Shown here piece by piece: positions 176 through 1,794 of a stretch of 64,000 bases of DNA. The DNA is taken from positions 1,141,936-1,205,935 of the forward strand of contig NW_019217797.1 of the NCBI RefSeq assembly GCF_002571385.2. Direction: 5' to 3'. How positions within the stretch are numbered: position 1 is the first letter of the stretch; each line of letters opens with the position of its first letter. The translations under genes and the position numbers were made by a program. Below the pieces are notes generated by a model that was not told the origin of the DNA, searched no databases, and saw only the letters and a program-made list of their open reading frames with translations. Origin of the DNA: Stylophora pistillata. Taxonomy: Eukaryota.

Positions 176-315
176 TATATATATATATAAGACGATACCA
201 CAAAGGTTGGATGAAACATATGTGTGAACTGCGGTTATGAGACGTGTATGAGAACGATCCTTCGCAGTAAAGCACTATTTGAGCAATAGTGAAAATCAGA
301 CCTGAAAAAAATTTC

Positions 316-388
316 AGGCCTGTACGGGATTCGAACCACTGACCTCTGCGATACTAGTGCAGCGCTCTACCAATTGAGCTAACAAGCC
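316..388 (-). tRNA. tRNA-like (Thr AGT-like) pseudo-tRNA / SINE head, array copy
   Basis: Reverse complement of the copy at 1005-1077. Confidence 0.55.
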
Positions 389-562
389 AACTGGGAGCAG
401 GCCATCAAATTAATTCGATATAAACCCGTAGATGATAAATCAAACAACAACAAACATATGAAACATATGTGTGAACTGCGGTTATGAGACGTATATGAGA
501 ACGATCCTTCGCAGTAAAGCACTATTTGAGCAATAGTGAAAATCAGACCTGAAAAAAATTTC

Positions 563-635
563 AGGCCTGTACGGGATTCGAACCACTGACCTCTGCGATA
601 CTAGTGCAGCGCTCTACCAATTGAGCTAACAAGCC
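563..635 (-). tRNA. tRNA-like pseudo-tRNA / SINE head, array copy
   Basis: Same sequence, offset +247. Confidence 0.55.
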
Positions 636-1004
636 AACTGGGAGCAGGCCATCAAATTAATTCGATATAAACCCGTAGATGATAAATCAAACAACAACAA
701 ACATATGAAACATATGTGTGAACTGCGGTTATGAGACGTATATGAGAACGATCCTTCGCAGTAAAGCACTATTTGAGCAATAGTGAAAATCAGACCTGAA
801 AAAAATTTCAGGCCTGTACGGGATTCGAACCACTGACCTCTGCGATACTAGTGCAGCGCTCTACCAAATAGTGCTTTACTGCGAAGGATCGTTCTCATAT
901 ACGTCTCATAACCGCAGTTCACACATATGTTTCATATGTTTGTTGTTGTTTGATTTATCATCTACGGGTTTATATCGAATTAATTTGATGGCCTGCTCCC
1001 AGTT

Positions 1005-1077
1005 GGCTTGTTAGCTCAATTGGTAGAGCGCTGCACTAGTATCGCAGAGGTCAGTGGTTCGAATCCCGTACAGGCCT
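1005..1077 (+). tRNA. tRNA-like (Thr AGT-like) pseudo-tRNA / SINE head
   Basis: 7-bp acceptor stem GGCTTGT/ACAGGCC, A box TAGCTCAATTGG, D stem GCTC/GAGC, anticodon loop CTAGTAT, B box GGTTCGAATCC, followed by T7. The T stem has 2 mismatches, so it is probably not a translating tRNA. Confidence 0.6.
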
Positions 1078-1251
1078 GAAATTTTTTTCAGGTCTGATTT
1101 CCACTATTGCTCAAATAGTGCTTTACTGCGAAGGATCGTTCTCATATACGTCTCATAACCGCAGTTCACACATATGTTTCATATGTTTGTTGTTGTTTGA
1201 TTTATCATCTACGGGTTTATATCGAATTAATTTGATGGCCTGCTCCCAGTT

Positions 1252-1324
1252 GGCTTGTTAGCTCAATTGGTAGAGCGCTGCACTAGTATCGCAGAGGTCA
1301 GTGGTTCGAATCCCGTACAGGCCT
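1252..1324 (+). tRNA. tRNA-like pseudo-tRNA / SINE head, array copy
   Basis: Identical unit, offset +247. Confidence 0.55.
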
Positions 1325-1498
1325 GAAATTTTTTTCAGGTCTGATTTTCACTATTGCTCAAATAGTGCTTTACTGCGAAGGATCGTTCTCATATACGTCT
1401 CATAACCGCAGTTCACACATATGTTTCATATGTTTGTTGTTGTTTGATTTATCATCTACGGGTTTATATCGAATTAATTTGATGGCCTGCTCCCAGTT

Positions 1499-1571
1499 GG
1501 CTTGTTAGCTCAATTGGTAGAGCGCTGCACTAGTATCGCAGAGGTCAGTGGTTCGAATCCCGTACAGGCCT
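1499..1571 (+). tRNA. tRNA-like pseudo-tRNA / SINE head, array copy
   Basis: Identical unit, offset +494. Confidence 0.55.
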
Positions 1572-1794
1572 GAAATTTTTTTCAGGTCTGATTTTCACTA
1601 TTGCTCAAATAGTGCTTTACTGCGAAGGATCGTTCTCATATACGTCTCATAACCGCAGTTCACACATATGTTTCATATGTTTGTTGTTGTTTAATAGCAA
1701 CTAATTTTCTTTGCAGAAGGAAAGAGTGATATTTGTATTAGTTTATACTATCGACTTTCTTACAATAACTGGCTAATCAGTGCATAAAACAAAT

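Follow-up and report, generated by a model that had tools for sequence, protein, structure and literature searches.

Organization of the Array at the Locus

The window, that is, the whole 64,000-nucleotide stretch of Stylophora pistillata DNA analysed here (contig NW_019217797.1, positions 1,141,936 to 1,205,935), contains near its left edge an inverted array of 247-bp units with a tRNA-like module. A preliminary description had reported the units, their cloverleaf, a T7 run, a microhomology joint and the lack of a hammerhead core, and all of these were confirmed. The left arm has 2.7 units on the minus strand (211 to 867); its outer 3' end, an atypical one, falls at unit position 178, and its 5' break at position 16. 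The right arm has 3.4 units on the plus strand (865 to 1692), with a 5' break at unit position 108 and an outer end at the long-end site (~195). The units match at 99%, the arms are 100% complementary over 657 nt, and they meet head-to-head in a 3-nt overlap (865 to 867) that joins unit position 16 to position 108. The array has five complete tRNA-Thr(AGT)-like modules with intact A and B boxes, two on the minus strand (316 to 388 and 563 to 635) and three on the plus strand (1005 to 1077, 1252 to 1324 and 1499 to 1571); unit numbering starts at the first base of the module at 1252, which is taken as positions 1 to 73. The self-complementary anticodon loop (tRNA positions 31 to 36; 1282 to 1287, plus strand) is identical in all units, and downstream of the module each unit has the T7 run (1329 to 1335, plus strand), which lies within an 11-pair hairpin and resembles a Pol III terminator. 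Two further sites on the plus strand, the short-end site (unit ~142 to 154; 1393 to 1405) and the long-end site (unit ~190 to 202; 1441 to 1453), are the putative start sites of reverse transcription. The hammerhead core CTGANGA is absent from both strands, and positions 1 to 2600 have no Rfam ribozyme match. An Rfam match to MIR841, with a score under the gathering cut-off, reflects the inverted repeat only and was rejected, and the output of ARAGORN with relaxed settings was largely noise.

To the left of the array, positions 1 to 175 (minus strand) contain the N-terminal part of the RT region of a Penelope-like element (PLE), which enters the N gap to the left of the window. This is followed by a (TA)n tract (176 to 189), the usual target of the neighbouring PLE family and of retrozymes, and by a piece of 21–23 bp of a 245-nt hammerhead retrozyme (190 to 212, plus strand), which overlaps the array end by 2 nt. 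A Penelope-like ORF had been said to start about 35 bp from the array across a (TA)n spacer; the PLE-like frame and the (TA)n tract are there, yet 21–23 bp of the spacer belong to the retrozyme, with 646 genomic matches, and the frame does not start at this point, since related copies extend upstream from position 175 and the piece is 5'-cut. The frame matches loci that have RT-type frames (their RT motif was read by eye), a GIY-YIG match just below the cut-off and minimal hammerheads.

This neighbour had also been offered as evidence of mobilisation, which did not hold, as PLE protein matches were found in 1/35 and 1/45 loci of the unit family versus 4/40 random 10-kb stretches, the 45 family loci being shorter than those stretches. 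With no enrichment of the family around PLEs, proximity is no sign of partnership, and the Penelope fragment beside the array is probably incidental; as mobilising partner it was ruled out by its 5' cut, its own minimal hammerhead and this lack of enrichment. A template switch at this place, from RNA of the Penelope to RNA of the unit, was considered; the retrozyme piece between the two is oppositely oriented. At the left joint of the array, four runs listed no bridging piece over positions 1 to 330, and about one read of run X23 crosses 177 to 209.

Other repeats of the window include four tandem units of 225 bp (59568 to 60468, 92% matches) with no relation to the tRNA-like unit, inverted arms flanking an N gap (2444 to 2867), an imperfect 105-bp palindrome (3487 to 3591) and a satellite of heptamers with 62.6 copies (13765 to 14210).

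Assembly of the Window Array and Head-to-Head Architecture

Directly to the left of the window there is an N run of 6.4 kb, with a second array on its far side. The two ends of the window array have no common target duplication; the 12-bp duplication at its right end (1693 to 1704, plus strand) has its partner at a distance of 10.8 kb, where the array beyond the gap has its distal end (about G000:C14:1132811-1132822). The inversion joint is also that of locus L050, a self-contained insertion on another contig, and the left arms of the two differ at one site. Because of the duplication partner across the gap and the shared joint, the copy number and layout of the window array are judged slightly more likely than not to be a gap-filling mosaic.

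The head-to-head architecture itself is a genuine trait of the family. A survey for the tandem-plus-inverted form, which the preliminary description had called for, covered 45 loci of contigs C1 and C2 taken without selection and found it in 26 of 51 clusters, and in 21 of the 37 free of N. That the form arises throughout from fold-back artefacts of the assembly or the libraries is hardly credible. Long arrays do often end at a single N, joints or flanks are sometimes duplicated across gaps (L034, L417, L439) and the window layout is itself suspect; against this, N-free loci of 290–700 bp have unique breakpoints inside duplications of 12–15 bp, and opposite-strand joints are present in the raw reads of two runs and in a contig of a third.

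The tRNA-like Module and Its Anticodon Loop

The module has an Rfam tRNA score of 48.9 bits, versus up to 76 bits for the best tRNA matches of the genome; the T stem of the young family has two mismatches, and A31-C39 is unpaired. Thus, the module has neither the high model score nor the intact stems of a functional tRNA gene. Among 36 distinct heads, taken from the Stylophora genome and metagenome contigs and representing about three lineages, double changes preserve pairing at 6:67 and 7:66 in the acceptor stem and at 28:42 in the anticodon stem; the search filters held the D stem and some of the anticodon stem constant. Small contigs (L086, L097, L108, L109) carry bacterial-looking tRNA genes whose CCA end is encoded, which may be contaminants in the assembly.

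Of the first 100 matches listed, 96 have CTAG at loop positions 32 to 35, and an older subfamily with 62 matches has CCGG. The unit is also present in runs labelled coral metagenome, and the metagenome heads have CCGG in 97/129, single CpG-type decays in 17 and CTAG in 2. The CCGG loop lacks U33 and nevertheless keeps the palindrome. The CTAG loop is also found in the second and third tandem, head-to-head families described below and is absent from the ordinary tRNA-SINE of this genome. As CTAG is native to tRNA-Thr(AGU) (L098) and CCGG to CTAG is a path of CpG decay, few independent events stand behind the palindrome. A search for further loop types near the third family gave four matches, none new. 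A31-C39 is mismatched in 37/37 aligned heads, whose search pattern included these columns, and this opens a 9-nt loop bearing the 6-nt palindrome. At window position 1285 (tRNA position 34), run X23 has A>G in 130/1,931 sense-type and 29/1,521 antisense-type reads, a difference that ADAR editing or wobble-type editing of a tRNA could produce.

Insertion Anatomy of the Family

The 28-base head pattern of the unit has 8,822 genomic matches, a count inflated where arrays are over-extended, and the family is young and dispersed, with thousands of copies. The outer ends of 35 loci chosen by identity fall at unit positions 142–154 or 190–202 in 43 of 45 cases (47 ends minus one match to another family and one duplicate), which defines two fixed end sites ~50 nt apart. 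Target duplications of 12–15 bp bound 10 of 12 double-ended loci, whereas the maximum among 132 cross-pairings is 9 bp; with wider windows, a repeat of at least 12 bp is found in 15/27 head-to-head clusters, and 3/698 cross-pairings reach 12 bp. In all 15 head-to-head clusters having a repeat of at least 12 bp, a short end pairs with a long end. Whole-arm identity gave no clear separation within versus between loci, and a diagnostic-site test was used instead: both arms share the same variant in 12/12 duplication-bounded loci (nine with the reference and three with the variant form; Fisher P 0.0045), and the two loci with discordant arms are both without a duplication. Together, the short-long rule and the shared variant suggest that both ends are primed on a single RNA; the shared variant could also reflect activity of only one subfamily at any given time.

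The 5' breaks of 12 clean loci are scattered, none of them at tRNA +1 or position 38, and the arms are joined through an overlap of 0–16 nt or short inserts. The arms run through tRNA +1, the nearest of 24 arm 5' ends lying 5 nt upstream of it. Poly(A), simple-repeat and LINE-derived tails are absent, and internal unit positions directly abut the target. The joints of L048 (7489 to 7559), L034, L047 and L059, either head-to-head or 5', contain brief, stuttered repeats of unit sequence from close by, which repeated annealing between two cDNA ends would be expected to leave. Two unusual loci were also seen: the left end of the composite in L032 (9821) coincides with the T run (unit 84) and not with the usual short site, and L051 (4530 to 5356) has two long ends, head-to-head, without a duplication and with flanks that are themselves inverted copies.

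Two other tRNA-like tandem families of this genome have two end sites each and are often head-to-head, in 9/18 (289-nt unit) and 11/25 (370-nt unit) cases judged by eye. The 289-nt family, with 723 candidate places, is present in the window itself (40838 to 41101) as a head-to-head insertion with the CTAG loop, a 13-bp duplication and a short and a long end. The third, tRNA-Thr-like family of 370-nt units (L120, L121, G000:C148) ends at ~103 and ~155 and is inserted in (TA)n, at times next to PLE ends.

Probable Penelope-Type Mobilisation

From the insertion geometry, here it is proposed that the 247-bp unit family is inserted by the borrowed RT/GIY-YIG enzyme of a PLE, with a probability of roughly 85%. 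The preliminary idea of a retrozyme-like, Penelope-mobilised element thereby stands in that the unit is non-autonomous, free of a hammerhead and bears Penelope-type insertion marks, while the neighbouring element drops out as evidence. The target duplications of the family (12–15 bp) are comparable with those of the PLEs of the same genome (11–14 bp), which were resolvable in 3 of 20 fetched GIY-YIG PLE loci together with a one-sided tail of 32–94 nt, and the targets are AT-rich. In the available text of PMC8557442, PLE copies are described as tandems with an inverted 5'-cut copy and a tail on one side, and the origin of such insertions is presented as unsolved; purified Anolis PLE protein, modelled as a dimer, was reported to cut both strands and to extend them from two internal sites (PMC11167929, likewise as available). 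Taken together, the steps of two-ended PLE priming and of variable-length cDNA copying with head-to-head joining are considered probable from the genomic record.

An origin independent of PLEs, by LINE twin priming or by a DNA-level process such as a satellite or a rolling-circle transposon, appears improbable. It would agree with the finding that the unit has no sequence in common with any PLE examined (50 GIY-YIG loci, of 1,590 candidates) and that some family loci are flanked by LINE-type RT frames, but it sits poorly with the absence of both poly(A) and a LINE tail, with outer ends that are 3' ends at fixed internal sites under a strict short-long rule, as in PLE copies, and with the different appearance of an ordinary SINE of the same genome. 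For the PLE-borrowing reading, two young families are candidate partners by age and target type only: a Poseidon-like one (L513-L517, L509), whose RT-GIY-YIG frames are nearly identical and which has an atypical hammerhead-like core, and another represented by L506 and L523.

RNA Reads and Probable Editing

Reads of the unit family numbered 6,067 and 6,255 in two raw runs, each from 12.9 million at 92% likeness, a threshold at which related subfamilies are included. Both strands are covered about equally, and these two long-RNA runs, whose library type is unable to reveal a 247-nt circle, show neither piles of read starts or ends nor any RNA that is unit-length, circular or cut. Separated by mate orientation, run X23 has A>G at 9.3% versus 2.4% and T>C at 0.7% versus 8.9% over 10 sites chosen by eye from 40 listed rows. 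Such a pattern is what A-to-I editing of both strands would give in a stranded library. Coral repeats with clustered edits are treated in PMC5850803, going by its listing.

Possible Roles of the tRNA-like Module

The palindromic loop points to tRNA-splicing-type processing or to RNA pairing. Folded without constraints, the two-unit dimer of the window forms a tRNA with swapped halves and a central helix with a probability of 0.76–0.79. The same fold reaches 0.99 in one subfamily, 0.38 in the second family, 0.02 in the third family, 0.26 and 0.02 in two other subfamilies and 0 in two decayed CCGG dimers; of these seven further natural dimers, six show it weakly or not at all. As A31-C39 mismatches, the predicted central helix has 6 bp (31 to 36), and it competes with a 4-bp register. 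The available text of PMC6614914 states that tricRNA formation needs a proximal C-G pair and a 6-nt spacing, with which C32:G35' and the spacing of the unit agree, and that full pairing of the helix reduced splicing in Drosophila reporters.

Since the swapped fold resembles an intron-containing pre-tRNA, TSEN and RtcB could yield unit-length circles from it. In the proposed chain, arrays would be transcribed by read-through, and neighbouring units are predicted to swap tRNA halves, with positions 32–35 pairing with 32'–35' beside a 3-nt bulge. TSEN would then cleave after position 37 and RtcB would seal a 247-nt circle, using the same end chemistry and ligase as retrozyme circles; a circle closed at 37/38 has the same joint sequence as a tandem transcript. 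A dimeric PLE protein would nick both strands of AT-rich DNA ~12 nt apart, and both ends would be primed on the same RNA, at unit ~145 and ~195. Each cDNA would travel a variable length round the template, and the two cDNA ends may be joined head-to-head via an overlap of 0–16 nt or a short insert. Processing by TSEN/RtcB into unit-length circles is put forward tentatively as the role of the module, at somewhat below even odds. The whole chain including this step is held more loosely, and so is the general statement that a coral superfamily hijacks tRNA splicing, with host machinery standing in for the retrozyme hammerhead and a dimeric PLE enzyme copying the circle.

The preliminary description had suggested that the module may be a Pol III promoter and/or an RNase P/Z site. 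For the promoter, the A and B boxes are intact, but the T run lies 60–110 nt upstream of both start sites, and terminated Pol III transcripts could therefore not be the templates. A PLE-mobilised unit whose module is merely a Pol III promoter from a SINE-like ancestor, with array read-through as template and the palindrome as a leftover of Thr(AGU), is rather unlikely. The intact boxes, a CTAG that is native to Thr(AGU), the several families failing the swapped fold and the long, two-stranded RNA without processing sites all agree with such a remnant; the position of the T run, which precedes both start sites in each of the three families, does not, nor do the covarying acceptor and anticodon stems, which a promoter does not need, or the CCGG loop, which keeps its palindrome despite losing U33. 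Cutting of the multimer into monomers by RNase P and/or RNase Z at the tRNA boundaries is weakly supported and quite improbable: while compensatory changes conserve the acceptor stem, in the 12 clean loci 0/24 arm 5' ends lie at tRNA +1 and none after position 73, read piles are absent at the boundaries, double cutting would split the unit and the palindrome would be left unexplained.

By analogy with the retroviral dimer signal, the 6-nt palindrome in its 9-nt loop may instead be a kissing-loop signal pairing two RNA templates for a dimeric PLE enzyme. The A31-C39 mismatch, which opens this loop in 37/37 heads, speaks for this, as does the frequent head-to-head form of the three palindrome families and its lack in the retrozyme. 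The reading is nonetheless unlikely, as the same arm variant in 12/12 loci fits one template better than two from a pool and autonomous PLEs yield head-to-head copies without such a loop. Whatever the role of the module, the 247-nt unit offers thousands of young insertion records bearing on how PLE-type insertions arise, and its inverted arrays are likely a major source of edited double-stranded RNA in corals. If the circle step were true, this would be a mobile element exploiting TSEN and RtcB, a natural counterpart to engineered tricRNA expression.

Comparison with Known Systems

A literature search to which Repbase, Dfam and most subscription journals were external found no description of such an element, and a repeat catalogue may already list the family under a heading such as SINE or unknown repeat. 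SINE2, the class of tRNA-derived SINEs used here for comparison, shares with the unit the tRNA-derived A and B boxes, the non-autonomous nature and the thousands of copies. Unlike SINEs, copies of the unit run through the tRNA in tandem instead of starting at it, have the T run right behind the tRNA and lack a LINE tail. The control tRNA-SINE of the genome starts at its head and is head-to-head in 0/20 cases; the unit family has no head start and no tail and fails as a SINE.

Animal non-LTR retrozymes, in the available texts of PMC7229834 and a July 2026 preprint (bioRxiv 10.64898/2026.07.22.740005, where 'tRNA' is absent from the main text as available), are also non-coding tandem units of 150–450 bp with low GC, long target duplications and a link to PLEs. 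They carry a hammerhead where the 247-bp unit has a tRNA fold, and their circles are demonstrated (as reported in those texts) where those of the unit are predicted. The 245-nt hammerhead retrozyme of this genome (L150, L146; 646 pattern matches), which resembles the coral retrozymes described in PMC7229834 and abuts a PLE tail in L146 and L209, is one-stranded, ends at the ribozyme and is inserted in (TA)n, and it touches the window array; the unit family is often head-to-head, has two end sites and uses targets outside (TA)n. As the retrozyme is head-to-head in 0/24 cases, the analogy is not exact. The unit is retrozyme-like in its layout and, probably, in depending on PLEs; lacking a type I hammerhead, it is not a retrozyme.

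EN+ PLEs and the non-autonomous Chlamys forms, e.g., MRC1, resemble the unit family in insertion anatomy, having, in the available portions of PMC8557442 and PMC11167929, partial tandems, an inverted 5'-cut copy, a one-sided tail, AT-rich targets and two internal start sites, as here. The unit differs from EN+ PLEs by having no ORF and by its tRNA mimic, and from MRC1-type elements, which generally share the 3' sequence of their partner according to the same sources, in that no such sequence was found among 50 GIY-YIG loci. With tricRNAs (PMC6614914, PMC10485636, as available), the unit would share, by prediction, the C32:G pair, the bulge of 3 nt and the spacing of 6 nt, as well as an excised piece that would be circularised by RtcB. 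Unlike in tricRNAs, the predicted helix has 6 bp and is fully paired, and the 'intron' would be a whole mobile-element unit produced by neighbours swapping halves. The 247-bp unit is accordingly filed as a new variant among the non-autonomous, PLE-mobilised tandem elements.
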